Below are positions 532 to 17,598 of a stretch of 45,066 nt of DNA, piece by piece. The position numbers and the translations under genes were made by a program. The DNA is from Candidatus Methylomirabilota bacterium. Its GTDB lineage: Bacteria; Methylomirabilota; Methylomirabilia; Rokubacteriales; CSP1-6. The notes beneath the pieces are model-generated. The model was not told the origin of the DNA and did not search any database. It was given only the letters and a program-made list of their open reading frames with translations. The stretch lies in contig JBKPAK010000269.1 in assembly GCA_046726415.1 (NCBI GenBank), forward strand, positions 1 to 45,066, in the 5' to 3' direction. How positions within the stretch are numbered: position 1 is the stretch's first letter; every line of letters starts with the position of its first letter.

Positions 532-596
532 GCGTCAGGCGACAAGCTCGCCCAAAGCGTCATGCGACAAGCTCGCCCAAAGCGTCATGCGACAAG
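532..596. repeat. 25-bp tandem repeat, ~2.6 copies, overlapping the transporter stop codon
   Basis: GCGTCA(G/T)GCGACAAGCTCGCCCAAA at 532 and 557, partial copy at 582. Confidence 0.9.
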
Positions 597-1829
597 GAGC
601 AGGGTAACGACGGCGAACAAGGGGATGAGCACGAGGCCACTGTAGACCATGTAGCCGAAGAAGCTGGGCATCTTGACGCCCGATTCCTCGGCGATCGACT
701 TGACCATGAAGTTGGGAGCATTGCCGATATACGTGTTGGCGCCCATAGCCACCGCGCCCACGCTGATGGCCGCGAGGATGGCCGCGGGTACCCCCACGAC
801 CTCGTTGGCAAGTCCGAGGCCTTGGCCGAGGGCGAGAAACACGAGGTAGGTCGGCGCATTATCGAGGAACGACGAGAGCGCGCCGGTCGCCCAGAAGAAC
901 TGCCAGGGCTGGCGAACACCCAGTCCGGGCCCCCGCATGCGCAGCAACTCCAGCGCCGGAATCATGGTCAGGAAGATCCCGAAGAAGAGGACGGCAACCT
1001 CCACCATCGGATATGTCGTGAAGCCGTTGGCGCGCCTGATCTCTCGCGGCGTCGTCCAGAGCGAGACCCCGACCAGCGCCGTGATCAGGAGCTCTCTGAC
1101 GGGCGCCCGGAGGAACGCGACCGCGAGCACCACCCCGACCAGCCAGATAGCGTTGCTGCCCCCGTGCACTCGCAGGGGTTCGAGCCCTGTCCGGTCCCGG
1201 AGGATCGCCGCCATGGGTTCGCGCGCGTACTGGCTCGAGTCCCAGACGAGGTAGACGAGCAGCAGGGTACCGACCATCAGGAGCCAGTGTGGCCACAACC
1301 GAAAGGTCCACGCGAACGGCACGCCCTGCAGGTAGCCCAGGAACAACGGGGGATCGCCGAGGGGAGTCAGCATGCCGCCGATGTTCGACACGGTGAAAAT
1401 GAAGAAGACCACCGTGTGCTTCACCCGCGTTCGCTCCTGGTTGGTTTGCAGTAACGGGCGAATGAGAAGCATCGACGCGCCCGTGGTACCGACGAAGGAC
1501 GCCAGCACCGACCCGACGGCAAGGAAGCCGGTATTGGTGAGCGGCGTGGCCATCAGGTCGCCCCGAAGCAACACCCCACCCGAGATGACGTAGAGGCCGG
1601 CCAGCAGGATGATGAACGAGACGTATTCCTCGGCCATCGCCACCAGGGCGCCGGGTCGCCGCCTCAGGTAGACGCCGAGGATGGGCAGACCCAGGACACA
1701 GGCCACGAGCAGCTTGTTCCGGTTGCTCTCCCACCAGTGCGGCCGCCACAGCGGCAAGACCGCGATCGCCAGCAGCATGAGGACGAACGGCACCACCGCG
1801 TAGAGGGGCAGCGCAGATCCTGAAGGCAA
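585..1829 (-). CDS. IT-superfamily membrane transporter (putative Na+/H+ antiporter / CitMHS_2-like)
   Basis: Polytopic hydrophobic ORF with SNIGGMLTPLGDPPLFLG, SSFLDNAPTY and TYIGNAPNFMVKSIAE. Start moved to TTG 1829, which has GGAGAGG upstream. Confidence 0.8.
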   Translation of the reverse strand: MPSGSALPLYAVVPFVLMLLAIAVLPLWRPHWWESNRNKLLVACVLGLPILGVYLRRRPGALVAMAEEYVSFIILLAGLYVISGGVLLRGDLMATPLTNTGFLAVGSVLASFVGTTGASMLLIRPLLQTNQERTRVKHTVVFFIFTVSNIGGMLTPLGDPPLFLGYLQGVPFAWTFRLWPHWLLMVGTLLLVYLVWDSSQYAREPMAAILRDRTGLEPLRVHGGSNAIWLVGVVLAVAFLRAPVRELLITALVGVSLWTTPREIRRANGFTTYPMVEVAVLFFGIFLTMIPALELLRMRGPGLGVRQPWQFFWATGALSSFLDNAPTYLVFLALGQGLGLANEVVGVPAAILAAISVGAVAMGANTYIGNAPNFMVKSIAEESGVKMPSFFGYMVYSGLVLIPLFAVVTLLLVA

Positions 1830-1845
1830 GGCGTCCTCTCCGGGG

Positions 1846-4800
1846 CTACGCGTCGGAGAGGGGCAGAGTGATCCGGAAACAGGACCCGCGCCCCGGCGCG
1901 CTGCGGACGGTGACCGTGCCGCGATGGTGCTCGACGATCTCTCGGCTGATCGGCAGCCCAAGCCCCGCCCCTTCCGGCTTGGCGGTGAGCGTGTCCCCTA
2001 CTTGGCGAAAGCGCTCGAAGATGGCGTCCATCTGGTCAGGGAGGATCCCGACCCCGGTGTCCTCCACCTCGACGACGGCGCGGGCATCGTTGGTCAGTGT
2101 GCGCACCCACACCCGCCCGCCGCGGGGGGTGAACTTGGCGGCGTTGGAGAGGAGGTTGGTGAGGACCTGGATGATCTTGTCGCGATCGGCCAGGACCGGC
2201 ACGCGGTCCGGGACGGGCGACGCCTCGAGGTCGATCGCCTTATTGTCGAAGAGCGCGTGATTGGTCAGCACGGCCTGAGCCACCACTTCTCGAAGGTCGA
2301 GGCTCTCGATTCGCCACTCCATCTTGCCGGCCTCGATCTTCGACAGGTCGAGCAGCTGGTTGATCATGCGGGACAGACGCTGGCTCTCCTGGGTGATGAT
2401 GGCCAGGAACTGCTGCTGGCGCTCGCCGGGGATGTCGGCGCGACCTTCGAGCAGGCTCTCGGACAGCGAGCGGATGGCGGTGAGCGGCGTCCGCAGCTCG
2501 TGGGACACGGTGGACACGAAGTCGCTCTTGAGCCGGTCTAGCTCCGTGAGCCGCTGGTTCGCCTCTTCCAGCTCGGCCGTGCGCTGCCGCACCTTGACTT
2601 CCAGCTCGTGCGACAGATCCCCGAGCTCGCGGTAGAGCTGCGCATTCTGGATGCCCAGCCCGAGCTGGACGGCCAGCGTGCGGAAGAACTGGAGGAACTC
2701 CGGAGAAAAGTACACGCGGCCAGTGGACGAGTAGACCGAGAGCACGCCGATGGGCCGCTCCTCGACGGCGATGGGCGCGTGGACGAAAGAGCGGGGCTCC
2801 GGCGCCTCCGGCGCCGGGAAGACCACCGGCTTGCGGATCAGCGTCGCGTCCTCCACCACCAGCACGCGGTTGTCCACAAAGCACTCGCCGAAGTACGTGT
2901 CGCGCGAGAGTGGATCTCCGCGGGAGAGGTCGGTCTCGGGCGGCAGGCCCACGTGGCTCTTGATGCGCAGATGTTCGTCGGGATCCCGCAGCCGGATCGT
3001 AAGCACGTCGAACGCGAACTCCTGGCGCAGGAGCTGAACGACCCCGTCCATCATCTGTTGGGGATCCAGGGTGGAGGCGATCCGTCGGGTCGCCTCGTTG
3101 AGCAGGCTCAGCTCCCGCACCCGCCGTTGGAGATCCTCACGGCTCTGCTCCAGAGACTGCGACACCTTTCCGAAGACGTCGAAGATGGTTTCGAAGCGGG
3201 CGGTCGCCCCCTGCAGCGTCTCTAGAATGGCCTGGGCGGAAGCAGTTCCGACGGCCCCCGAAAGCGTGCGCTCGGTGAACTGGAGAAGCTCGCGCTGGTC
3301 GGCCTCGGTCAACGGCCGCCCGTCGGGGATGCCCCGGGAGTCAACGAAGCCGCGGAAGGCCTCCTGGGCCTTGTCGCGACCGACGAACTTGGCCACGAGC
3401 TCCTCGAGCCGCTCGGCGGTGAGGCCGTGGACGCCCACGGGCGTTGCCGCTCGGGCCCGTTCGCGCTCGAATACGCCCACGAAGCGCTCGGCCTGGGAGG
3501 TCTCGAGTGACAAGGGCCGCGTGTAGAGGGAGACCGCGGCAAAGGCGGCCACGTTGAAGGCGAGCGACCAGAAGACCGTATTTGACCAGAAGCCGATCCC
3601 GGTGACCCCGAAGAGTTGCTCGGGGCGGAGCCAGCCGATCCCGAAGGGCCCCTCCCGGATGAGGCTCTCGGGGACCCAGCCCGAGCGCACGAAGGAGGGC
3701 AGGAGCAGCGTATACGCCCAGATGCCGAAGCCGGCCGAGAGTCCGGCCAGCGCGCCCTGGCGCGTGGCCCGGCGCCAGTAGAGGCCGCCGAAGAAGGCGG
3801 GCGCGAACTGGGCCACCGCCGCGAACGAGATGAGGCCGATATTCACCAGCGTGTACGACTCGCCGATCAGGTGGTAGTACGCGTAGCCCAGCAGAATGAT
3901 CACGGCGATGGCCAGCCGCTTGGCGTTGATGAGGAGCCCAGAGATGTCGCGGGTCATGCCGCGGCGGACGAGCGAGGGGACGACCAGGTTGTTGAGGATC
4001 ATCGTCGACAGCGCAATGGACTCGACGATCACCATGCCTGTCGCCGCCGAGATCCCACCGATGAACGCGAACAGGGCCAGGCCCTGCTGATGCTGGGCCA
4101 TCGGCAGCGTCAGCACGAAGTAGTCGGCGGCGGTCACCGGCGCGCCGGGAAAGATCAGCACTCCCCCGAAGGCGATGGGAAGCACGAAGACATTGATGAG
4201 GAGCAGGTACACAGGGAACATCCACATCGCGGTCTTGATGTGGCCCTCGCGCGTGTTGCCGATGACGGCCATGTGAAACTGGCGCGGCAGGAACAGGATG
4301 GCCATCATCGAGAGCCAGGTGAGGGCCGCCCAGTCGCCATACGAGAACACGGGGTCGCCGCCGAGCATGCGGGCGTACTCGGGACGCTGGGCCGCGCGTC
4401 CGAAGATGTCGGCGAAGCCGCCGAAGACCCCGTAGGTGACGAACACCCCTACGGCCAGAAACGCGAGCAGCTTCACCAGCGACTCGAAGGCGATGGTGGC
4501 CACCAGTCCCTCGTGCCGACGCGAGGAGTCGAGGTCGCGCGCGCCGAACATGATCCCGAAGGCGATCAGCAGCACGGCCGTCCCGAAGGCGGTGTCGGCC
4601 CAGAACGGCCGGCTCGCCGACGCCGGCAGCGTGGTGGTGACGGCTGGGTATTGCAGAAGGACCTCAAAGGTCTGGGAGATCGCCTTGAGCTGCAGCGCGA
4701 TGTAGGGGGTAATGCCGACTACGGTAATGACCGCCACCACGCCGCCGAGAAGTGTGGACTGGCCGTAGCGGGAGCCGAGGAAGTCGGCGATGGAGGTGAT

Positions 4801-5094
4801 GTTGTTGGCCTTGGCGATGCGAACGGTCTTGCGGAGCACCCACCACCATCCGACGGCCATGAGCGTAGGGCCGAGGTAGATCGGCAGAAACCCCACGCCG
4901 GAGGCCACCGCCCGCCCCACGCTCCCGTAGAAGGTCCAGGAGGTGCAGTACACCGCCAGGGAGAGCGAGTAGATGACGGGGCTGTCAATAAGGCTCGTCC
5001 CCTCGCGCGCCCGCCGGTCGACGTAGTACGCGATGGCGAACAGGCCGAGCACGTACGCGAAGGCGACGCTGGCGATGCTCCAGGCGGTCAGCAC
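1846..5094 (-). CDS. SLC5(SSS)-STAC-GAF sensor histidine kinase (CrbS/CbrA-like), HK1
   Basis: N-terminal YSLSLAVYCTSWTFYGSVG and LPRQFH SSS domain; STAC-like ERTLSGAVGTASA; GAF; SHELRTPL H-box; NLLSNAAKF, DTGVGI and GAGLGL boxes. Confidence 0.92.
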   Translation of the reverse strand: MLTAWSIASVAFAYVLGLFAIAYYVDRRAREGTSLIDSPVIYSLSLAVYCTSWTFYGSVGRAVASGVGFLPIYLGPTLMAVGWWWVLRKTVRIAKANNITSIADFLGSRYGQSTLLGGVVAVITVVGITPYIALQLKAISQTFEVLLQYPAVTTTLPASASRPFWADTAFGTAVLLIAFGIMFGARDLDSSRRHEGLVATIAFESLVKLLAFLAVGVFVTYGVFGGFADIFGRAAQRPEYARMLGGDPVFSYGDWAALTWLSMMAILFLPRQFHMAVIGNTREGHIKTAMWMFPVYLLLINVFVLPIAFGGVLIFPGAPVTAADYFVLTLPMAQHQQGLALFAFIGGISAATGMVIVESIALSTMILNNLVVPSLVRRGMTRDISGLLINAKRLAIAVIILLGYAYYHLIGESYTLVNIGLISFAAVAQFAPAFFGGLYWRRATRQGALAGLSAGFGIWAYTLLLPSFVRSGWVPESLIREGPFGIGWLRPEQLFGVTGIGFWSNTVFWSLAFNVAAFAAVSLYTRPLSLETSQAERFVGVFERERARAATPVGVHGLTAERLEELVAKFVGRDKAQEAFRGFVDSRGIPDGRPLTEADQRELLQFTERTLSGAVGTASAQAILETLQGATARFETIFDVFGKVSQSLEQSREDLQRRVRELSLLNEATRRIASTLDPQQMMDGVVQLLRQEFAFDVLTIRLRDPDEHLRIKSHVGLPPETDLSRGDPLSRDTYFGECFVDNRVLVVEDATLIRKPVVFPAPEAPEPRSFVHAPIAVEERPIGVLSVYSSTGRVYFSPEFLQFFRTLAVQLGLGIQNAQLYRELGDLSHELEVKVRQRTAELEEANQRLTELDRLKSDFVSTVSHELRTPLTAIRSLSESLLEGRADIPGERQQQFLAIITQESQRLSRMINQLLDLSKIEAGKMEWRIESLDLREVVAQAVLTNHALFDNKAIDLEASPVPDRVPVLADRDKIIQVLTNLLSNAAKFTPRGGRVWVRTLTNDARAVVEVEDTGVGILPDQMDAIFERFRQVGDTLTAKPEGAGLGLPISREIVEHHRGTVTVRSAPGRGSCFRITLPLSDA

Positions 5095-5098
5095 CGGC

Positions 5099-5299
5099 TC
5101 ACCCCTCGTCGTCCCACGAGGCCCGGGCGAGGACGAACACGGCCACGATGCCCGCGCACCAGGCGCCGAAAAGGTAGAGGTAGAGGATGGGGATGCCCGC
5201 CAGGGTCGCGCCGCGGTTGAAGATCGCCAGCACCGGGAAGTTGAGCAGGAGCGCGCCCATGACGAACAGGAGGGCGAGCTTGCCGCCGACGCCGCTCAG
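5099..5299 (-). CDS. Small 2-TM membrane protein preceding HK1 (paralog of 17595..17795)
   Basis: Hand translation: (M)SGVGGKLALLFVMGALLLNFPVLAIFNRGATLAGIPILYLYLFGAWCAGIVAVFVLARASWDDEG*. CTG start overlaps the upstream TGA with GGAGG 7 nt before it; alternative ATG at 5260. Not in the ORF track. Confidence 0.8.
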   Translation of the reverse strand: MSGVGGKLALLFVMGALLLNFPVLAIFNRGATLAGIPILYLYLFGAWCAGIVAVFVLARASWDDEG

Positions 5300-7479
5300 G
5301 GGGCCGCCTCCGCCTGATCGCGGGCCGGACGCCCGGGACCGGGACGGGCCCGACGCGTTGCCTCCAAGGCCTGTCCGAGGGTGGCGATCTGGCGCTTGTG
5401 GAGCAGGGGCAAGAGGCGGACGAGGACATCGGCAGTCGCCAGGGCGTCACCGAGGGCGGAGTGCCGGCCATGGACGGTGACGCCAAGGCGGCCGGCTGCC
5501 GCGTCCAGCTCGTGGCCAGGCAGGGGGCCATGGACAACCGAGCTGAGGGACAGGGTGTCGAGAACGGGGTGTGATGCCGTGAGCGATGGGAGGCCCAGGC
5601 GTCTGGCCTCGCGCTCGAGAAAGCGGAGGTCGAACCAGACTTGGTGCCCCACCAGGACCGCGCCCTCGGCGAAGACCAGGAACGCCGGGAGCACGACATC
5701 GATCTTGGGCCTGTTCGCGACCATATCGTCCGTGATCCCATGGAAGCGGCTACTGCCGGGCGGAATAGGCCGCGCGGGGTTGACGAGCGCGTCGAACGTC
5801 TCGCCCCGCTTCACGACGCCACGCCGCACGCGAACGGCCCCCAGCGAGACGATATGGTCGCGGTCCGGATCGAGACCCGTCGTCTCGGTATCGAGCACGA
5901 CGCAATCGAGCTGGTCCAGGACCCGGGCACGGTCGTCGGGCCTCAGGTGCCGCTCCATGTCGTCGAGAAGCGAGAAATCATAGAAGTCAGGTCGCGCGGC
6001 CTTTCCCTCGCCACTCCCCGCGGCCGAGACGGTGCCGGCGCCCGCGAACGCGAGCCTCCTGCCCTGACCGTGGCGCGGGTCTTCCGCGGCAGCAGACACG
6101 GGCAGGCTCAGCGCGAACCCGAGCCGGGGCGGGTCGGCGTACGCCCACACTTCTCCGGAATGGCGCTGGGCGATCTCGCGGACGGAGACCGCCGTGACAC
6201 CGGTACCCGGGGGCGTCTCGAGGACCGCCTCGAGCTCCTCGACGTCACCGTGGCCGACGCTGCCGACATCGATCTGGACGACGCCACCCCGTGGCGTCGA
6301 GCGCAGCCAGACGGCCGTGTCCGGCCCTACTCGGGCCGCGACCGCGGTGACCAAGTAGGCGATCGCGCCGCTCAGTTGGGAGGCCTCGACCCGGATAGGG
6401 CACGCGGGTTGCGGACCTTGGTCACTGTCCACGCGCCCGGCCGGCAAGTCACGCTGGGCGAGCCGCCGCAAGGCCATCGCCGTCAGGTCGGCCACCGTGA
6501 CTTCCTCGAAATGCCAGGGCGGCTCGCCGAGCCCCAGCGACCCGGGCCCGGTGACCGCGCGCAGGAGCCCGGAGAGCCGAACCGCTTCCGCATGAATCGC
6601 GCCGACGAGGCGGCTGGCGGGGTCACCGAGGTCGGCCCGGTCGGCCATGAGGCTTTCGGAAAGAGAGCGGATCGAGGCCAGGGGGCCACGGAAGTCCCGG
6701 AGGGCGTCGGTCAGGCGCCGCCGGCGCATCTCATCGAGGCGGGCCGGGGAGGTGACGTCGCGCAGGACGAGGACGAACCCCACGAGCCGCTCGTCGTCGA
6801 AAAAGGGCGTCATCACCGTGTCGAGGACAGCCTCGCCGCCAGGATGGAGACGAAACCGCTCGGCGCTGCCGCCTGTCGTCCGCAGGCGCTCCTGGTAGTA
6901 CGTGACCTTCTCGCGGTCCACGACCTCGAAGAGATTGCGTCCCAGCAGGCTCGCTCCGCCCGTGGCCAGGCGCTCCTGGGCCTCGCGATTGGCCAGCGTC
7001 ACGCGGCCCTCGGGCGCGGTCACCACCACAGCTTCGCCGAGCGTTTCCAGAACGGCAGACAGCTTCGACCGCTCGACGGTAAGCTCGTGAGTGGCTCGGA
7101 TCACCTCGGCCTCGAGTCCCGTGCGAGCCTCTTGCACCCGGTCAGCCATCCGGTTGATCTCCGCGGCCAGCGCCTCTAACTCGTCGCCGGTGTGGACGTC
7201 GAGGCGGTGCTGGAAGTTCACCGTCGCCATTAGCTCGGTGCCGAGCTGGATCTGTTGCAGCGTGCGCACGAGCGAGCGGCCGATCGTGTGCGCGATGACG
7301 CCGAGGTAGGTCATCATCGCGGCGAACCCGACGGCGACGGTTATGACGAGCCCGAAAGGGTCCTGGAAGATCCCGCGGCGGTAAAGCGCGAGCAGGATCA
7401 GCCCGCCGGCCAACGCCGGCACGAGGAATAGGAGGAGGACGCCGTGGACGAGTTTACGCTCGAGACGGGAGGACCGCAC
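5296..7479 (-). CDS. Membrane HAMP-PAS-pseudo-histidine-kinase fused to a DnaQ-like DEDDh 3'-5' exonuclease domain
   Basis: Two TM helices, HAMP (GDELEALAAEINRMA), PAS, His-less DHp (LRDFRGPLASIRSLSESL), eroded HATPase; C-terminal VLDTETTGL, GHQVWFD, LDTL, HSALGDA. Confidence 0.85.
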   Translation of the reverse strand: MRSSRLERKLVHGVLLLFLVPALAGGLILLALYRRGIFQDPFGLVITVAVGFAAMMTYLGVIAHTIGRSLVRTLQQIQLGTELMATVNFQHRLDVHTGDELEALAAEINRMADRVQEARTGLEAEVIRATHELTVERSKLSAVLETLGEAVVVTAPEGRVTLANREAQERLATGGASLLGRNLFEVVDREKVTYYQERLRTTGGSAERFRLHPGGEAVLDTVMTPFFDDERLVGFVLVLRDVTSPARLDEMRRRRLTDALRDFRGPLASIRSLSESLMADRADLGDPASRLVGAIHAEAVRLSGLLRAVTGPGSLGLGEPPWHFEEVTVADLTAMALRRLAQRDLPAGRVDSDQGPQPACPIRVEASQLSGAIAYLVTAVAARVGPDTAVWLRSTPRGGVVQIDVGSVGHGDVEELEAVLETPPGTGVTAVSVREIAQRHSGEVWAYADPPRLGFALSLPVSAAAEDPRHGQGRRLAFAGAGTVSAAGSGEGKAARPDFYDFSLLDDMERHLRPDDRARVLDQLDCVVLDTETTGLDPDRDHIVSLGAVRVRRGVVKRGETFDALVNPARPIPPGSSRFHGITDDMVANRPKIDVVLPAFLVFAEGAVLVGHQVWFDLRFLEREARRLGLPSLTASHPVLDTLSLSSVVHGPLPGHELDAAAGRLGVTVHGRHSALGDALATADVLVRLLPLLHKRQIATLGQALEATRRARPGPGRPARDQAEAAP

Positions 7480-9410: not shown

Positions 9411-9752
9411 TCAGTGACCCCCAAGCAGCGCCGCGCACTTCGCCTTGACGTCGTCCGAGGACTTGCAGTCCTTGACGTAGTTGACGAAGGCCCCCAGTGG
9501 GGTCGCATCGGCCCTGCCCTCGGCCACGCCCTCGGTCAGCCTCGCCATCGCCGCCTTGCCAGCCACGCTGTCGAGATCACAGGCGACGACCCTCTCCCCC
9601 GCACCCCACCACTTGGTCTTCTCAATCGTGAGGTGGCCGCCCTTGAAGCCGCCCTTGTCGTGGTTGACGATCAGCTTCTCGCCACTGTCGAGGGTGAGCT
9701 GGCAGTACGCGCCCGCCTTGGGATCAACCACGAATCTGCCGACCTTGGCCAT
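9411..9752 (-). CDS. Hypothetical 113-aa soluble protein, paralog 1 of a four-Cys family
   Basis: AAGGAGG RBS before ATG 9752; aligns by eye with ORFs at 44424..44779 and 44791..45066. Confidence 0.85.
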   Translation of the reverse strand: MAKVGRFVVDPKAGAYCQLTLDSGEKLIVNHDKGGFKGGHLTIEKTKWWGAGERVVACDLDSVAGKAAMARLTEGVAEGRADATPLGAFVNYVKDCKSSDDVKAKCAALLGGH

Positions 9753-9840
9753 CGCATCCTCCTTCCGAGAAGGCGGCGTTGCGCCGGACGACGCTTCGGT
9801 CTCTCCCATAGTCTAGCTGAAGCCCACGGTGGCGATGGAT

Positions 9841-10263
9841 TCACGGTCGGGCGTCGCGCTTGCCGAAGACGGCGCGGGCGACGATCGCCACCGAGCCGAG
9901 CACATTCGTCAGCGCCGTGAGCACCAGCGAGAGCAGCGTCAGGGTCATGATCGGAGCAAGCAGGGGCCGGAGGCCGGCCTTCGGCGGGAGCTGGGTGTCG
10001 AGCCAGAACAAGGGCATGAGGACGAGGATCGGGATCGCGAGGATCACGAGCACCAGCCCGCCGGCGGCCCGTCCCGCCCGGCTCAGGAGCTCGAGTCGCC
10101 GGTGCCGGGCTTCCGTCCGCACCCACATGGTGGTCACCAGAATGAGCAGGACCAGCAAACACGCGAGGAACACCGGCTGGGGCATGAGATTGGCACCGGC
10201 CACCGCGTACAGCACGCCGAACAGGACGACGCCCACCGTGTTGGCGGCCGCCAGGGCCAGCAC
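9841..10263 (-). CDS. Hypothetical 4-TM membrane protein
   Basis: Four hydrophobic stretches; tightly spaced in the actP operon. Confidence 0.65.
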   Translation of the reverse strand: MLALAAANTVGVVLFGVLYAVAGANLMPQPVFLACLLVLLILVTTMWVRTEARHRRLELLSRAGRAAGGLVLVILAIPILVLMPLFWLDTQLPPKAGLRPLLAPIMTLTLLSLVLTALTNVLGSVAIVARAVFGKRDARP

Positions 10264-10269
10264 GGCGCC

Positions 10270-10572
10270 TCAGCCAGCGCGTCCACCCGCGACTTGGTGC
10301 AGCACGGCGCGGGCCACGATCCAGAGGAGCATGTAGACGGCGAGGGAGATCGTCCGCACGCGGGGCTCGGGGGTCCCGGACGGCAGGACTGAGCGGATGG
10401 GGCGCGTGAGTGGGCCCGTGACGACAGCGAAGAACCACAGCACCGGGCTGTCGGCACGCCCGATCACACGCGCGACGATGATGTGGAGCAGCAAGTACAC
10501 CCACGCCATGAAGAGGAGCAGCGGTACCACGACGTTGAGGAGAAGCAGCAGCCGGACCCAGGGCTCATCCAT
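10270..10572 (-). CDS. YggT-like small membrane protein
   Basis: SPVLWFFAVVTGPLTRPIRSVLP resembles the YggT P..FL..lT.P.L.PiR..lP motif. Confidence 0.6.
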   Translation of the reverse strand: MDEPWVRLLLLLNVVVPLLLFMAWVYLLLHIIVARVIGRADSPVLWFFAVVTGPLTRPIRSVLPSGTPEPRVRTISLAVYMLLWIVARAVLHQVAGGRAG

Positions 10573-10632
10573 TCGGCAACGATGGCTTCGGGCGGAGGCA
10601 CCGGGCCCCCGCCCGCGGTTCGAAGCCTTGGC

Positions 10633-13031: not shown

Positions 13032-14450
13032 CTACCGTGACGCATCGCGCTGCGGGCCAGCGCCAGATTCTCCGCTGTCAGGCGAAACCGCCTTGCGCAT
13101 GCCATAGCGCACGAGCTTCTCGGAGAAGTTCTTCGGGTCCATATCCGCATGCTTGGCGGCGGCGGTCAGCTTGCCGCCGCTGGCCTCGAGCACCCCGCCG
13201 ATATAGGCGCGCTCGAATTCCTCCACCACGCGCGCCTTGGCGTCGCGGAAGGATAGCGAGAGGTCCACTCCGGGGCGGCCGCTCTCCGGTCCGAGGAAGC
13301 GCTCGACTTCTACGATCGTGTCCACGCGGGCCAGGATCACACCGCGCTCGATGACGTTTTCCAGTTCGCGGACGTTGCCCGGCCAGCCATAACGGCAGAG
13401 AGCCTGCATCGCCTCAGGAGCGATATCTCGCACCGGCTTCTTCGAGCGACGGGCGCTTTCCTTGAGGAAGTGGCGCGCCAGAAGGGGCACGTCTCCTTCG
13501 CGCTCCCGGAGCGGCGGCACCCTGATGGGCATCACGCTCAGACGGTAGAAGAGGTCGGGCCGGAAGGCGTTCCGCTCGACCTCGGCGCGTAGGTCCTTGT
13601 TGGTGGTGGCGATGAAGCGGACATCGATCTCCACCGCCCGATCCGAACCAATCGGCGTGACGCATTTGTCCTCGATGACGCGCAGGAGCTTCGACTGCAG
13701 CCCGAGGGGCATCTCCCCGATCTCGTCGAGGAGCAGGGTGCCCCCACTGGCGCTCTGCAGAAGGCCCCGCCGGGTCTCGGCAGCGCCCGTGAAGGCGCCC
13801 TTGCGAAAGCCGAACAGTTCGGATTCGAACAGGTCGGTGGGGATGGCTGCGCAGTTGACGGGCACGAAGGGCTTGTCCCGGCGCGCGCCCGAGAAGTGGA
13901 CCGATCGCGCCAGCAGTTCCTTGCCCACCCCCGTCTCCCCGTGGATGAGCAGGGTCGTGTCGAGATCCGCTACTGAGCGGAGGACCTCGAAGACCTCGCG
14001 CATGGCCGCGCTCTGGGCCAGGGCGTTCTTGAGCGTAAAGCGCTCTTGGTTGTGCCTGAGGGTGGCCCGGCTGGCCGCGCGCAACTCGTGGAACTCGATG
14101 GCGTGACGGAGGACGATGAGCAGTTCCGCCGTGTCGAAGGGCTTCACGAGGTAGTTGGCGGCGCCCAGCCGCATGGCCTCCACCGCGGACTCAATGGTGC
14201 CGTAGGCGGTCATCATGACCACCGCCACATCGGGATGATCGGTCTTGATCCGCCGAACCAGCTCCACGCCGTCCATCCCGGGGAGCCGCTTGTCGGTCAT
14301 CACGACGTCGACGTCCTCGCGCTTCAGCGCGTCGACGGCATCCTCGCCGCTCGACAGGGCGAGCACCTCAAAGCCCGCCACCTCCAGGGTGCGCCGAAGC
14401 GGGCGCAGGAAAATCTCGTCGTCCTCGACGATCATCACACGGCGCTTCAT
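13032..14450 (-). CDS. Sigma54-dependent response regulator (NtrC/AtoC family), EBP1
   Basis: Receiver, GETGVGKE, ESELFG, GAFTGA, LDEIGE, WPGNVRELEN, C-terminal HTH. Confidence 0.95.
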   Translation of the reverse strand: MKRRVMIVEDDEIFLRPLRRTLEVAGFEVLALSSGEDAVDALKREDVDVVMTDKRLPGMDGVELVRRIKTDHPDVAVVMMTAYGTIESAVEAMRLGAANYLVKPFDTAELLIVLRHAIEFHELRAASRATLRHNQERFTLKNALAQSAAMREVFEVLRSVADLDTTLLIHGETGVGKELLARSVHFSGARRDKPFVPVNCAAIPTDLFESELFGFRKGAFTGAAETRRGLLQSASGGTLLLDEIGEMPLGLQSKLLRVIEDKCVTPIGSDRAVEIDVRFIATTNKDLRAEVERNAFRPDLFYRLSVMPIRVPPLREREGDVPLLARHFLKESARRSKKPVRDIAPEAMQALCRYGWPGNVRELENVIERGVILARVDTIVEVERFLGPESGRPGVDLSLSFRDAKARVVEEFERAYIGGVLEASGGKLTAAAKHADMDPKNFSEKLVRYGMRKAVSPDSGESGAGPQRDASR

Positions 14451-14465
14451 GACGACCTCCTTTGA

Positions 14466-14577
14466 CTGGAGGGGGCCTGGGCCCCCTCCAGACCTCCCCG
14501 TTTGCGCGAGGTGCTACCCCCCAACCTCCCCGTTTGCGCGAGGTGCTACACCGAACCTCCCCAGTTGCGCGGAGGGG
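14466..14577. repeat. REP-like hairpin followed by three ~31-32-bp tandem hairpin units
   Basis: CTGGAGGGGGC-CTGG-GCCCCCTCCAG (14466-14491), then ACCTCCCCGTTTGCGCGAGGTGCTAC at 14492 and 14524, and a variant at 14555. Confidence 0.8.
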
Positions 14578-14628
14578 CGACACGCGCCTTCGCGATACCG
14601 GGCCCTCTTCGATTCTCCGACATGCCCC

Positions 14629-17598
14629 CTAACCTAGCCGGATCGGCTCCGCCAGGCTGGCCTGGGGAATCACGAGTCGGACCGTTGTTCCTCGCCCGGG
14701 AGCGCTGTCGATCTCGATCTCCCCCCCATGCAAATCCATGATCTTCTTCACGATGGCCATCCCGAGCCCGGTGCCGGTGGGCTTAGTCGTGAAAAACGGC
14801 AGGAAGAGCTTCTCACGGTGCTCCGGGGCGATCCCGCTGCCATTGTCGGCCACCTCCACCACTGCGGCGGCGCCCCGAGGATAGAGGCACACCTCGACTT
14901 TGGGCCCGGGACGCCGCTCGACGGCCTCCAAGGCATTGCGCACGACATTTGTAATGGCTTGCCGAAGGCGCTGCCCATCCACGAGTGCGGCCAGGTCGCG
15001 ATCAAAGCCGCGGGTGATCAGTTCCACGCCTCCTCCGCTCCCCTCTGCCCTGGTGGCCTCGACCACCGAAGTCAGGATGCTCCCCAGCGGATATTCCTGG
15101 CGGTCCAGCCGCGTGTCGCGCGCGTAGTCCAGGAGGTCGGAGATAATCGCGTCGATCTCGGCGATCCCCGACAGAATGGTGTGGGCCATCTCACGCGAGA
15201 TCGCCTCGCCGTCGACGGCGCCCGAGCTGAGCAGCGAGGTAGCCATCTTGATGCCCCCGAGAGGATTGCGGATCTCGTGGGCCACCCCCGCCGCCATCTC
15301 ACCGAGTGACGCCAGTTTCTCCCGCTGGATCATGCGCTGCTGGGTGGCGACCTGCTCGGTGAGATCGCGGAGGACGCCGACCGTGCCCATGACTTCGCGC
15401 TGAGTGTCGAAGACACAGGCGATGGACAGATGCGCGGGGAAACGGTGACCGGCGCGGGTGAACCCGGTCAGCGTGCCGCGCCAGGAGCGCCGCTCGACCA
15501 AGGCGCGCTGGATGGCGGCACCGACGCGCCGGCGCTCCGCGGGGTCCAGAACATCCAGATAGGTCAGTCCGGACGCTTCGACCGCCGACAGACCGAGCAG
15601 TCCTTGGCCGGCCGGATTGATGGTGACCAGCCGGCCGTCAGTGTCGGTGGTGAAGATGCAGTCCTCTACGCTCTGCACCACCGACGCCAGCAGGTGCTCG
15701 CTCGTCTTGAGCGAACGCTGCATGGTCTGGAAGGATTCCACGAGCTCGCGGGCTTCGCCCTTCGAGATGGTGAAGCGATCCTCGATGATGTAGTGGGCGG
15801 CCGCGCCGCCCAGGGAGGCAGCCAGGACGCGTTCGAGCCGGATGCGTAGATCGAGCAGATCGGGCAGGGTCAGCTCGTGAGGCGCTTTCCCAGCCAGCAG
15901 CTCGCGCAAGGTGGCTTCGGCCTCGTCGTGGGGTACGTAGAGGTGGATGAGCCGCTCGATCTCCGAGATCGACAGCGGCGCGACGCGCAGCGGTTCGGCT
16001 TCGACCAGGCCCACGAAGGCGGCCGCCTGGCTGCGCTCCTCTGCATCCTGGCGGGTGAGCGCTGATGCCAGCAGGTAGACCGAGACATTGGCGAACAGCG
16101 ACCAGAAGACACCGTGACTGATCCCGTCAAGGCCGGTGAGTCCGAAGAGGGCGGTGGGCCGGAGCCAGCTGAGACCGAACGGGCCCTCGCCGAGCCACCC
16201 CGACGACAGGACGCCCTCCTTCATGAGGGCGGGAATGATGAGGGTGTAACACCAGAGCGCGAAGCCCACGGAGATCCCCGCCAAGGCGCCCACCCGGGTC
16301 CCTCGGCGCCAGTAGAGTCCAAGAAAGACCGCGGGGGCGCACTGGGCCACGGCAATGAAGGAGAGCAGGCCCATCTCCACCAGCAAAAGGTGCCCGGCCT
16401 CGATCCGCGCCCAGAAGTAGCCGAGCACGACGACCACAAGGATGCCCAGACGGGTCGAGGCCAGGCTGGCCCAGTAGACTTCGGCAAACTGCCCCCGCCG
16501 CAGGATGACCGGCAGGATGATGTCGTTCGAGATCATCTTCGACAGGGCGAGGGAATCGACCACGATCATGGCCGTGGCCGCGGAGAAGCCGCCGAGAAAA
16601 ACGGCCACCGCGACCGCCGGCGCATCGGCGGCCAGAGGCAGGGCCAGGATAAAGCTGTCCGCCGTCGCGGCCTGCCCGGGAAACTTCAGGAGTCCGGCGA
16701 ACGCGATGGGCAGCACGAAGATATTGATCGCGAGCAGATAGAGCGGAAACGCCCACGCCGCGGTGGCCACGTCCCGCTCCCGCGGGTTCTGAACCACGAG
16801 CACGTGGAACTGGCGGGGCAGCAACATCACCGCCAGCATTGACACCAGAAGCATGGCCGTCCAGCGCGCGTACGAGGCCGAAGGCGGTGTCCCCAAGGTG
16901 AGCAGGCTCGACCATTCCGGATGGTCGATAATGCGAGAGAAGATGTCGGCGAAGCCCCCGAAGAGCCCCCAGGTGACGAACCCCCCCACGAGCAGGAACG
17001 CCACCAGCTTCACGATCGACTCCACTGCCACCGCGGACATCAACCCGGTCTGCCCCCGGGTGAAGTCGAGGTTGCGCGCACCGAAGAGGATACCGAAGAG
17101 GGCCAGCATGGCCGCCACCAGGAGAGCGGGGTCGAAGCCGGAGAGGACGGAGTCGCCGCCGATCATCATGGCGAACGACACCGAGACGGCCTTGAGCTGG
17201 AGCGCGATGTAGGGAATCATCCCGCAGACCACCAGCGCCGCCACCAGCGTCCCGAGGGACGCCGACTTCCCGTACCGGCTGGCGATGAAGTCGGAGATCG
17301 TGGTGATTCGCTGCTCTTTGGCCACCCGCACGAGCTTGCGCAACACGGTCGGCCACCAGAGCGCCACGAGAGCCGGCCCGAGGTAGATGGTGAGGAATTC
17401 CAGCCCGCGATTGGCGGCCAGGCCGACACTGCCGTAGAAGGTCCAGGCGGTGCAGTAGACCGACACGGCGAGCACGTACGTCAATGTCTGGAGCCGCGGG
17501 CTCGAGAGTCGCCGCCCAAAGCGCTCGGCCACGGCGGCGACTAGGAAGAGGAAGACGAGGTACCCGATGAGGATAGCCGCGAGCGGTGTGGAGCTCAC
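14629..17598 (-). CDS. SLC5(SSS)-STAC-PAS sensor histidine kinase (CbrA-like), HK2
   Basis: SVYCTAWTFYGSVG, LPRQFH, STAC-like ERVLAASLGGAAA, PAS, AHEIRNPL, NALEA, DNGSGI, PFFTTK, GTGLG. Confidence 0.92.
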   Translation of the reverse strand: MSSTPLAAILIGYLVFLFLVAAVAERFGRRLSSPRLQTLTYVLAVSVYCTAWTFYGSVGLAANRGLEFLTIYLGPALVALWWPTVLRKLVRVAKEQRITTISDFIASRYGKSASLGTLVAALVVCGMIPYIALQLKAVSVSFAMMIGGDSVLSGFDPALLVAAMLALFGILFGARNLDFTRGQTGLMSAVAVESIVKLVAFLLVGGFVTWGLFGGFADIFSRIIDHPEWSSLLTLGTPPSASYARWTAMLLVSMLAVMLLPRQFHVLVVQNPRERDVATAAWAFPLYLLAINIFVLPIAFAGLLKFPGQAATADSFILALPLAADAPAVAVAVFLGGFSAATAMIVVDSLALSKMISNDIILPVILRRGQFAEVYWASLASTRLGILVVVVLGYFWARIEAGHLLLVEMGLLSFIAVAQCAPAVFLGLYWRRGTRVGALAGISVGFALWCYTLIIPALMKEGVLSSGWLGEGPFGLSWLRPTALFGLTGLDGISHGVFWSLFANVSVYLLASALTRQDAEERSQAAAFVGLVEAEPLRVAPLSISEIERLIHLYVPHDEAEATLRELLAGKAPHELTLPDLLDLRIRLERVLAASLGGAAAHYIIEDRFTISKGEARELVESFQTMQRSLKTSEHLLASVVQSVEDCIFTTDTDGRLVTINPAGQGLLGLSAVEASGLTYLDVLDPAERRRVGAAIQRALVERRSWRGTLTGFTRAGHRFPAHLSIACVFDTQREVMGTVGVLRDLTEQVATQQRMIQREKLASLGEMAAGVAHEIRNPLGGIKMATSLLSSGAVDGEAISREMAHTILSGIAEIDAIISDLLDYARDTRLDRQEYPLGSILTSVVEATRAEGSGGGVELITRGFDRDLAALVDGQRLRQAITNVVRNALEAVERRPGPKVEVCLYPRGAAAVVEVADNGSGIAPEHREKLFLPFFTTKPTGTGLGMAIVKKIMDLHGGEIEIDSAPGRGTTVRLVIPQASLAEPIRLG

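Follow-up and report, generated by a model that had tools for sequence, protein, structure and literature searches.

An exonuclease-bearing pseudo-histidine kinase and a neighbouring symporter kinase share a candidate receiver-docking helix in Rokubacteria

How could a histidine kinase core that lacks its phosphorylatable histidine still take part in two-component signalling, and what would it pass on to a nuclease fused to its C-terminus? The question is raised by a 45,066-nucleotide stretch of DNA from a Candidatus Methylomirabilota bacterium of the Rokubacteriales (contig JBKPAK010000269.1 of assembly GCA_046726415.1, positions 1 to 45,066, forward strand), referred to here as the window. 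It encodes a protein, called the fusion here, in which a sensor part and a degenerate kinase core precede a DEDDh exonuclease, together with a symporter-like histidine kinase (HK1) and a lone receiver; all of the cassette-region genes studied here are on the minus strand of the window (Table 1). An earlier interpretation made from the letters of the window (the sequence-only reading) had proposed that HK1 phosphorylates the receiver, which then docks on the dead core and switches the exonuclease, following the logic of the Caulobacter pseudokinase DivL.

The helix shared by HK1 and the fusion

In the first helix of the dimerisation and histidine-phosphotransfer (DHp) domain, residues 864-888 of HK1 read SHELRTPLTAIRSLSESLLEGRADI and residues 260-284 of the fusion read LRDFRGPLASIRSLSESLMADRADL. 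Both peptides had been quoted in the sequence-only reading and both are present in the translated window, the second of them within positions 6600-6720, where it had been placed. The kinase cores of the two proteins are 26% identical over 233 residues (BLASTP, E 9e-14), and in this alignment R261 of the fusion lies opposite H865 of HK1, confirming the replacement of the phospho-accepting histidine by arginine. When positions are counted from this histidine, HK1 and the fusion are identical at 8 of the 12 places from H+7 to H+18, and the highest scores of the 34 remaining kinase cores in the genome were 6/12 to HK1 and 5/12 to the fusion. The hexapeptide IRSLSE occurs in two of the 50,753 six-frame open reading frames (ORFs; at least 80 aa) of the 7.6-Mb genome, namely HK1 and the fusion, and the chance of an eight-residue match is ~1e-8 when it is calculated from own-genome residue frequencies with pseudocounts and positions are assumed to be independent. 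With the DHp domain of the fusion as a phmmer query, HK1 was the sole match in the genome (E 2.8e-4); with the whole pseudo-core as the query, HK1 came first (E 2.6e-11), followed by a match at 3.2e-6.

The identity had been described as running from IRSLSESL to a trailing RAD. The IRSLSESL segment held, but the RAD did not, as in the ortholog pair of locus L021 (83% identical) the kinase has EGRAN at this place and the fusion has AEGPA. The conserved shared element is therefore only (S/A)(I/V)RSLSESL.

The claim that this part of DHp helix 1 sets receiver specificity agrees with what is known of EnvZ. According to the EnvZ study (PMC2991266), T250, R251, L254, A255, E257 and M258 are among the coevolving specificity residues of a kinase whose phospho-site is H243, and EnvZ was rewired by the three substitutions T250V, L254Y and A255R. 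Counted from the histidine, these residues are H+7, +8, +11, +12, +14 and +15, and the shared segment covers H+8, +11, +12, +14 and +15, corresponding to R251, L254, A255, E257 and M258. In the window pair, HK1 and the fusion agree at H+11, +12, +14 and +15, and H+8 is A in HK1 and S in the fusion; H+8 is Ser in both partners in 17 of 29 Rokubacterial pairs, and H+7 differs in every pair (T versus A or S). The description of DivL as a pseudokinase that reads DivK~P was borne out by PMC4211667, in which DivL carries Tyr550 in place of the phospho-histidine, has neither kinase nor phosphatase activity, and binds DivK~P via those segments of DHp helices 1 and 2 on which receivers dock. In the same source, R553A, T557N and Y562A disrupt DivK~P binding and G561 and L565 are modelled contacts. 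Counted from Tyr550, G561, Y562 and L565 fall at Y+11, +12 and +15.

Kinase core and nuclease of the fusion

Judged by its sequence, HK1 is a canonical HisKA histidine kinase and an ordinary member of its class. Pfam scores were 76.5 bits for HisKA, 102.8 bits for HATPase_c and 34.4 bits for SSF (on residues 46-146), GAF was also matched, and the SSS part of HK1 scored 495-1167 bits against 32 cassette kinases in the loci surveyed below. In the fusion, HAMP, PAS and RNase_T were present, HisKA stayed below threshold (19.8 bits, cut-off 26.9) and HATPase_c gave no Pfam match.

A set of 108 full-length homologs of the fusion, 50-83% identical and all of Rokubacteria/Methylomirabilota type, was aligned. 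The equivalent of the phospho-histidine is R in 69 of them, Q in 9, L in 9, H in 6, E in 3 and G in 2. Position H+4, which is Thr or Asn in bifunctional HisKA kinases, is Gly in 88/108. The equivalent of the N-box Asn (N984 in HK1) is A in 50, V in 16 and T in 12, and that of the G1 Asp (D1012 in HK1) is A in 78 and G in 14; Asn and Asp are outside the six commonest residues at their respective positions in these homologs. The erosion of the ATP boxes, which had been noticed in the window protein, is thus family-wide. The fusion accordingly lacks the phospho-acceptor histidine and the N-box Asn with the G1 DxGxG of an active HisKA kinase, and retains the DHp hairpin followed by the alpha/beta fold of a catalytic and ATP-binding (CA) domain, as seen in an AlphaFold2 model and by Foldseek. 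Because the histidine, the Thr/Asn at H+4 and the ATP-binding residues are missing, the fusion can neither phosphorylate nor, probably, dephosphorylate a receiver.

The AlphaFold2 model of the fusion had a mean pLDDT (predicted local distance difference test) of 82.9. Its N-terminal part shows helices at residues 3-34, 41-87 and 100-146, a HAMP-like coiled region and PAS strands at 150-241, and from the model the two long N-terminal helices are probably transmembrane. In the pseudo-core, DHp helices at 243-279 and 286-310 lead into a CA-like alpha/beta domain at 325-461, with pLDDT mostly 80-94; the linker at 466-476 is of low confidence, and blocks within 461-500 have a mean pLDDT of 52-67. 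Foldseek matched the model to full-length sensor kinases (WalK, model 9a5d; VicK, 4i5s; YF1, 4gcz; ThkA, 3a0r) with E values of 1e-13 to 1e-18, and to DivL (4q20) with E 6e-8 and 24% identity. The exonuclease part matched DnaQ types, with template modelling (TM) scores of 0.86-0.88 for Pol III epsilon (2gui: TM 0.88, root-mean-square deviation 1.5). As D530, E532, D617, H673 and D678 are invariant in 108/108 homologs, the exonuclease is, by its residues and predicted fold, an intact DEDDh enzyme.

Another histidine is found in helix 2 of the pseudo-DHp. H296 (window 6592-6594, in the motif AIHAEAVRLS) is His in 96/108 Rokubacterial fusions; by eye, no His stands at this place in the aligned outgroup fusions, and HK1 has Thr there in the BLASTP alignment. 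A role as a relocated phospho-acceptor was considered and set aside, since this residue is not found beyond the phylum and the sequence of the CA domain is incompatible with ATP binding.

Conservation, the cassette and the proposed pathway

Within Rokubacteria/Methylomirabilota, no part of the fusion outside the exonuclease is more conserved than the docking segment. R264, R271, L273 and E275 are present in 108/108 homologs, S272 in 107, L277 in 105, S274 in 99 and S276 in 92, and the 11-residue window at 268-278 has a mean majority fraction of 0.888, which ties for third place in the protein and is equalled or exceeded only by exonuclease windows. As S272, L273 and E275 are kept in 107-108 of the 108 despite divergence to ~50% identity, the segment is under selection whatever its origin. 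Nearly all of 90 HK1 orthologs (62-94% identity over residues 640-1082) carry (S/A)IRSLSESL, with TSIRSLSESLL in 59, TAIRSLSESLL in 12 and single variants in the remainder. In 28 usable Rokubacterial fusion/kinase pairs, which were matched by equal length of the longest contig as a proxy, 6-10 of the 12 positions from H+7 to H+18 are alike, and in the three Rokubacterial loci with both genes on one stretch 8-9 are alike. From these alignments, the docking segment of the pseudo-DHp is kept the same as that of HK1 under selection in this phylum.

The genes around the helix pair recur together. In a survey of one genome per species, which gave 77 loci with window proteins mapped onto their ORFs, a set of symporter-kinase, lone receiver, ~720-aa fusion and DUF294 protein, often with an ActP-like symporter, was found in many phyla. 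Named isolates among the carriers include Sabulicella, Roseicella, Aquincola and Methyloversatilis. The receiver is directly upstream of the fusion and on the same strand in 36/36 loci that have a receiver, while the kinase can be on either side (kinase-receiver-fusion in 18 loci, receiver-fusion-kinase in 12). In the window, the 3' end of the receiver gene overlaps the start of the fusion by 26 nt. The receiver has the residues typical of a phospho-accepting domain (acidic pocket, phospho-Asp, Thr/Ser and Lys): D10, E11, D53, K105 and P106 are invariant in 38 sequences, and at position 83 the five Rokubacterial receivers have Ser where the others have Thr.

The presence of the pseudo-core also goes with that of its would-be partners. 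For 38 long fusions, the sequence extends 4 kb or more on each side; 24 of these are accompanied by a receiver and a kinase and one by a receiver only. In eight short forms (HAMP-PAS-exonuclease without the pseudo-core, mostly labelled as Rokubacteria/Methylomirabilota), a receiver or kinase is nearby in 0/8. Within the family of the window, the genomes G002 and G017, which have a long fusion, also have orthologs of HK1 (2250 and 1872 bits) and of the receiver (178 and 181 bits, with a background of ~135), and neither ortholog was found in G001, G003 or G008. G001 belongs to the same genus as the window and carries the short form in the same DUF294-fusion-CitMHS_2 context. A variant fusion was seen in loci L004 (of G008) and L029, in which part of the CA-like region is kept (152 aa, 56 bits) and the DHp hairpin is gapped; no receiver lies between DUF294 and the fusion there, and in G008 there is one TAG inside the match.

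Taken together, synteny and conservation best support a DivL-like pathway from HK1 through the receiver and the pseudo-DHp to the exonuclease, to which we give a probability of roughly 0.55. HK1 would sense a transported solute or a cytoplasmic cue and phosphorylate the lone receiver. The receiver, which has no output domain of its own, would bind the pseudo-DHp at its docking surface in the way that DivK~P binds to DivL, and the dead-kinase scaffold would combine the receiver signal with its own HAMP/PAS input and pass both to the exonuclease. The same docking sequence on HK1 and on the pseudo-DHp would in the simplest case mean that both helices serve one receiver. Phosphotransfer, docking and nuclease switching are what we infer from this arrangement. 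A complex prediction of two copies of fusion residues 240-470 with the receiver, run with alignments, gave scores of 0.01 and 0.12 (mark 0.32) without controls, which speaks neither for nor against binding.

Several observations weigh against this pathway. Within Rokubacteria, the rare motif variants (SETL, LAESL, SENL) showed no co-variation between partners, and cognate pairs were no more alike than non-cognate ones (means 8.72 and 8.79; 3981 of 5000 permutations scored as high, for 29 pairs that include P0028, whose fusion segment was mislocated by pattern). Helix 2 of the pseudo-DHp resembles HK1 only at the generic I..E..RLS positions, as read from the BLASTP alignment. All of the relatives compared are kin and many are incomplete metagenome-assembled genomes, such as G001, which is 72% complete. 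Of the 38 long fusions, 13 have neither receiver nor kinase within 4-7 kb; 7 of the 13 are from Accumulibacter and hence kin. When five of these orphan genomes were searched with a receiver profile, a clear ortholog was found in two (198 and 190 bits, next best 110-125), in each case sitting in a second, complete cassette, and none was found in the other three; therefore, a pseudo-core can exist without a receiver and a kinase. Finally, the helices are not alike in other phyla. In 27/27 cases in which a kinase and a fusion from one locus were paired (Burkholderiales, Rhodospirillales, other Proteobacteria, Calditrichota, Actinomycetota, Anaerolineae, Balneolales and others), only 1-6 of the 12 positions are alike, as for unrelated kinases. 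The mimicry is therefore not needed for the cassette, and it cannot alone prove a shared partner.

Two genomes each carry two paralogous fusions, one genome from Accumulibacter (L098 = G041:C1:68000-84000; L036) and one from Defluviicoccus (L099 = G043:C27:13000-28000; L086). In both, one paralog is in a full kinase-receiver-fusion-DUF294 cassette and the other is without an adjoining receiver or kinase.

The orphan fusions and the unlike helices of other phyla would be expected if the receiver had no link to the fusion at all. The fusion would then obey its own HAMP/PAS input, with the core as a dimerising spacer, and HK1 and the receiver would control something else, for example the DUF294 enzyme or a distant target. 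We regard this as unlikely, as the receiver abuts the fusion in every locus that has one, and the pseudo-core, the receiver and the kinase occur, or are missing, as a group in the Rokubacterial forms and in the family of the window. The docking segment is also conserved beyond what a spacer would be expected to need.

A still less probable explanation, which the sequence-only reading had raised as an alternative, is that the DHp helices of HK1 and of the fusion together form a mixed four-helix bundle, through which the fusion would modulate HK1 or be regulated in trans, with the receiver being only the phosphate acceptor or sink of HK1. The identical stretch does include the core-facing positions H+9, +13 and +16, and the HK1 and fusion genes adjoin in the window and in L021-L023. 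However, helix 2, which is the other half of the dimer interface, is unlike HK1 beyond the generic positions given above, the cassette persists in other phyla where the helices differ, and the invariant adjacency is that of receiver and fusion, while the kinase switches sides. Stable heterodimers of histidine kinases are also rare.

Co-conservation of the motif in homolog pairs, which the sequence-only reading had set as its own test, was thus seen inside Rokubacteria/Methylomirabilota (the 28 pairs and three loci) and not in the other phyla. Over 30 pairs from all phyla, there was no clear excess of cognate over non-cognate identity (means 3.63 and 3.32). Outside pairs have T(S/A)(I/V)R(S/A)(F/L)(S/A)E(I/L)(L/I/M) in the kinase and (A/G)N(L/I)(R/Q)AAxE(T/N)L in the fusion. 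Thirty more distant SSS-GAF kinases (48-50% identical) are all of the IRSFSEIL type (26 exactly TSIRSFSEILL, four with one-residue variants), and outgroup fusions have A at H+11 in 36/53 and at H+12 in 49/53. Compared with these outgroup states, the Rokubacterial kinase has changed from F to L at H+12 and from I to S at H+15, and the Rokubacterial fusion from A to S, A to L, A/V to S and T/N to S, so that both proteins differ from their own outgroups toward one another. We read the helix identity as a refinement within Rokubacteria that points to the docking helix as the functional surface, with the cassette, not the mimicry, being general.

The outgroup fusions have no His among 53 at the phospho-histidine equivalent, where E is found in 23, D in 11, Q in 8 and R in 5. 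An acidic residue or Gln in 42/53 (e.g. L053, L079, L036) could mimic a charged or phosphorylated state.

Origin of the identity, related systems and the rest of the locus

The eight shared IRSLSESL codons differ at four places, each at the third position (24 nt compared). The shared segment is therefore not a recent DNA copy, recent gene conversion was ruled out on this ground, and any conversion would have to be old. A tree of 125 cores places the Rokubacterial pseudo-cores between all true kinases and the remaining pseudo-cores, and the path from them to the true kinases is shorter than that from the pseudo-cores of other phyla. In a 56-row tree, all 21 pseudo-cores are on one side of a branch, apart from the 35 true kinases (SH-like approximate likelihood ratio test, SH-aLRT, 99.9). 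Neither a grouping of the Rokubacterial fusions with Rokubacterial HK1 (log-likelihood 13.0 lower, p-AU 0.28) nor a grouping of them with all symporter kinases (p 0.28) was rejected by the approximately unbiased (AU) test.

These results bear on the possibility that the identity reflects shared ancestry and not a shared partner, the core or a helix-1 tract having been replaced by, or converted from, HK1 at the base of Rokubacteria and the helix then kept for structural reasons, e.g. bundle packing. We consider this rather unlikely. It would fit the finding that the pseudo-core matches HK1 better than any other protein of its genome, the shorter tree path to true kinases, the AU result and the inclusion of buried heptad positions (I, L, L) besides exposed ones in the identity. 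On the other side are the best tree, which sets the pseudo-cores apart from the true kinases, the low overall identity of the core to HK1, and the near invariance of S272, L273 and E275 across such divergent fusions. Ancestry would also account for how the identity arose, not for why it was kept. On these comparisons we favour orthology of all pseudo-cores followed by later convergence, or an old short conversion tract; under either origin, the alignments indicate that the segment has since stayed the same as the remainder of the core diverged.

The DivL-like pathway can be compared with three known systems. By sequence and model, the fusion fits a DivL-like class, having a kinase fold with the acceptor replaced and a conserved helix-1 docking surface, with receiver binding putative. 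Both proteins have a PAS-DHp-CA arrangement in which the phospho-acceptor is replaced (Tyr550 in DivL, Arg261 in the fusion), and the partner of DivL is also a single-domain receiver. However, DivL has a conserved CA domain and acts on the kinase CckA, whereas in the fusion the N-box and G1 residues are replaced and the output would be a covalently attached DEDDh exonuclease; the upstream kinase of the fusion is moreover a symporter fusion. This likeness is drawn without a claim of orthology at the sequence level. In EnvZ-OmpR, helix-1 residues after the histidine set partner specificity, and HK1 is an ordinary HisKA member of that kind; the fusion differs in lacking the His, the H+4 Thr/Asn and the ATP-binding residues.

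The third system is CrbS/CrbR (MxtR/ErdR) of Pseudomonas, for which the target pair PP_0354/PP_0353 (Pflu5625) is described as DUF294/exonuclease with its function unsolved, in PMC9927547, bioRxiv 10.64898/2026.09.07.749794 and PMC5715377. There too, an SLC5-symporter-fused kinase has functional links to a CBS/DUF294 nucleotidyltransferase and an RNase T-type exonuclease as well as to genes for acetate/carboxylate uptake, so that the DUF294/exonuclease pair as a target of a symporter kinase is already known. In Pseudomonas, however, the link is transcriptional via the DNA-binding CrbR/ErdR and the exonuclease is plain, whereas the window cassette has a bare receiver and a sensor with a dead kinase on the exonuclease, and would be linked through contacts between proteins. 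By Pfam, HK1 has the N-terminal SLC5/SSS domain fused to a kinase core that characterises SLC5/STAC kinases (CbrA/CrbS family); it carries GAF, while CrbS is described with a STAC-PAS-receiver layout, and a STAC linker was not matched in HK1 by a general Pfam scan, no dedicated STAC search having been made.

With more doubt than belief, we suggest a wider meaning: a widespread two-component pathway may end in a nuclease instead of a transcription factor, with a dead kinase reading the receiver via the docking code of the live kinase, which in Rokubacteria is the same letter for letter. If so, this would be a naturally occurring example in which a single receiver has selected for a matched pair of DHp surfaces, one phosphorylating and one sensing, and the cassette would be the equivalent, at the post-translational level, of the control that CrbS/CrbR exerts over the DUF294/exonuclease pair. 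Very few receiver-sensing pseudo-histidine kinases have been described, with DivL as the model, and none was found with an enzyme fused as output. No description of the kinase-like exonuclease fusion, of its cassette or of the helix identity was found in the literature searched, which left out most subscription journals, and as far as we have seen the helix identity between kinase and pseudokinase and its restriction to one phylum are new. The Rokubacterial identity predicts that S, L and S (H+11, +12 and +15) govern both phosphotransfer from HK1 and docking to the fusion, and the helix pair could serve as natural data on specificity residues when one receiver must fit two DHp domains.

Table 1. 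Features of the window and the evidence for each.
Feature	Position	Strand	Evidence
CitMHS_2 transporter, downstream of HK1	585..1961	-	Pfam CitMHS_2 502.7 bits, match begins at residue 50
HK1, 1082 aa: SLC5/SSS symporter-like domain, GAF, HisKA, HATPase_c	1846..5094	-	Translation, Pfam
HK1 DHp helix 1: H-box (H865) and candidate receiver-docking segment TAIRSLSESLL	2431..2505	-	Translation, BLASTP
Fusion, 727 aa: TM (transmembrane), HAMP, PAS, His-less DHp, degenerate CA, disordered linker, DEDDh exonuclease	5296..7479	-	Translation, Pfam, AlphaFold2, Foldseek
DEDDh (DnaQ/RNase T-type) 3'-5' exonuclease domain of the fusion, residues 503-715	5335..5973	-	Pfam RNase_T 129.1 bits
Pseudo-kinase core of the fusion, residues 243-461	6097..6753	-	AlphaFold2 secondary structure, homolog alignment
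Pseudo-DHp helix 1 of the fusion: R261 for phospho-His, ASIRSLSESLM matching HK1	6628..6702	-	Translation, alignment
N-terminal sensor part of the fusion, residues 1-242: HAMP 67-117, PAS 140-245	6754..7479	-	HAMP 31.8 bits, PAS/PAS_4 36 bits
Lone receiver, 124 aa	7454..7828	-	Pfam Response_reg 102.6 bits
CBS-pair, DUF294, DUF294_C putative nucleotidyltransferase, 517 aa	7836..9389	-	Pfam DUF294 152.9, DUF294_C 127.2, CBS 88.2 bits
Soluble 132-aa ORF	9411..9809	-	Scanned against Pfam, no match
Two hydrophobic ORFs, probably small membrane proteins	9841..10269 and 10270..10632	-	Sequence
ActP-like sodium:solute symporter, 644 aa	10633..12567	-	Pfam SSF 175.9 bits
NtrC-type sigma-54 activator	13032..14450	-	Pfam
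PAS-HisKA-HATPase kinase, 989 aa, with a long unassigned N-terminal part	14629..17598	-	Pfam

Upstream of the receiver, the DUF294 protein of the window begins directly at its CBS pair. The cyclic nucleotide (cNMP)-binding domain that is described for Pseudomonas DUF294 homologs is absent from it, and there is no room for such a domain because of an in-frame stop at 9411. Three small minus-strand ORFs (9411-10632) separate the DUF294 gene from the ActP-like gene; Pfam scans in this interval covered 9411-9809 and the overlapping ORF 9671-10504, and no Pfam match was obtained for the small ORFs. ActP-like ORFs are present in many related loci.

On the other side of the cassette, the TTG listed as start codon gives the CitMHS_2 gene a 116-nt overlap with the 3' end of HK1, and translation probably begins at a more downstream codon. 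The CitMHS_2 gene is placed identically in loci L021 and L005. A second sensor pair (13032-17598) lies upstream of the ActP-like symporter, in a layout like that of CbrA/CbrB.

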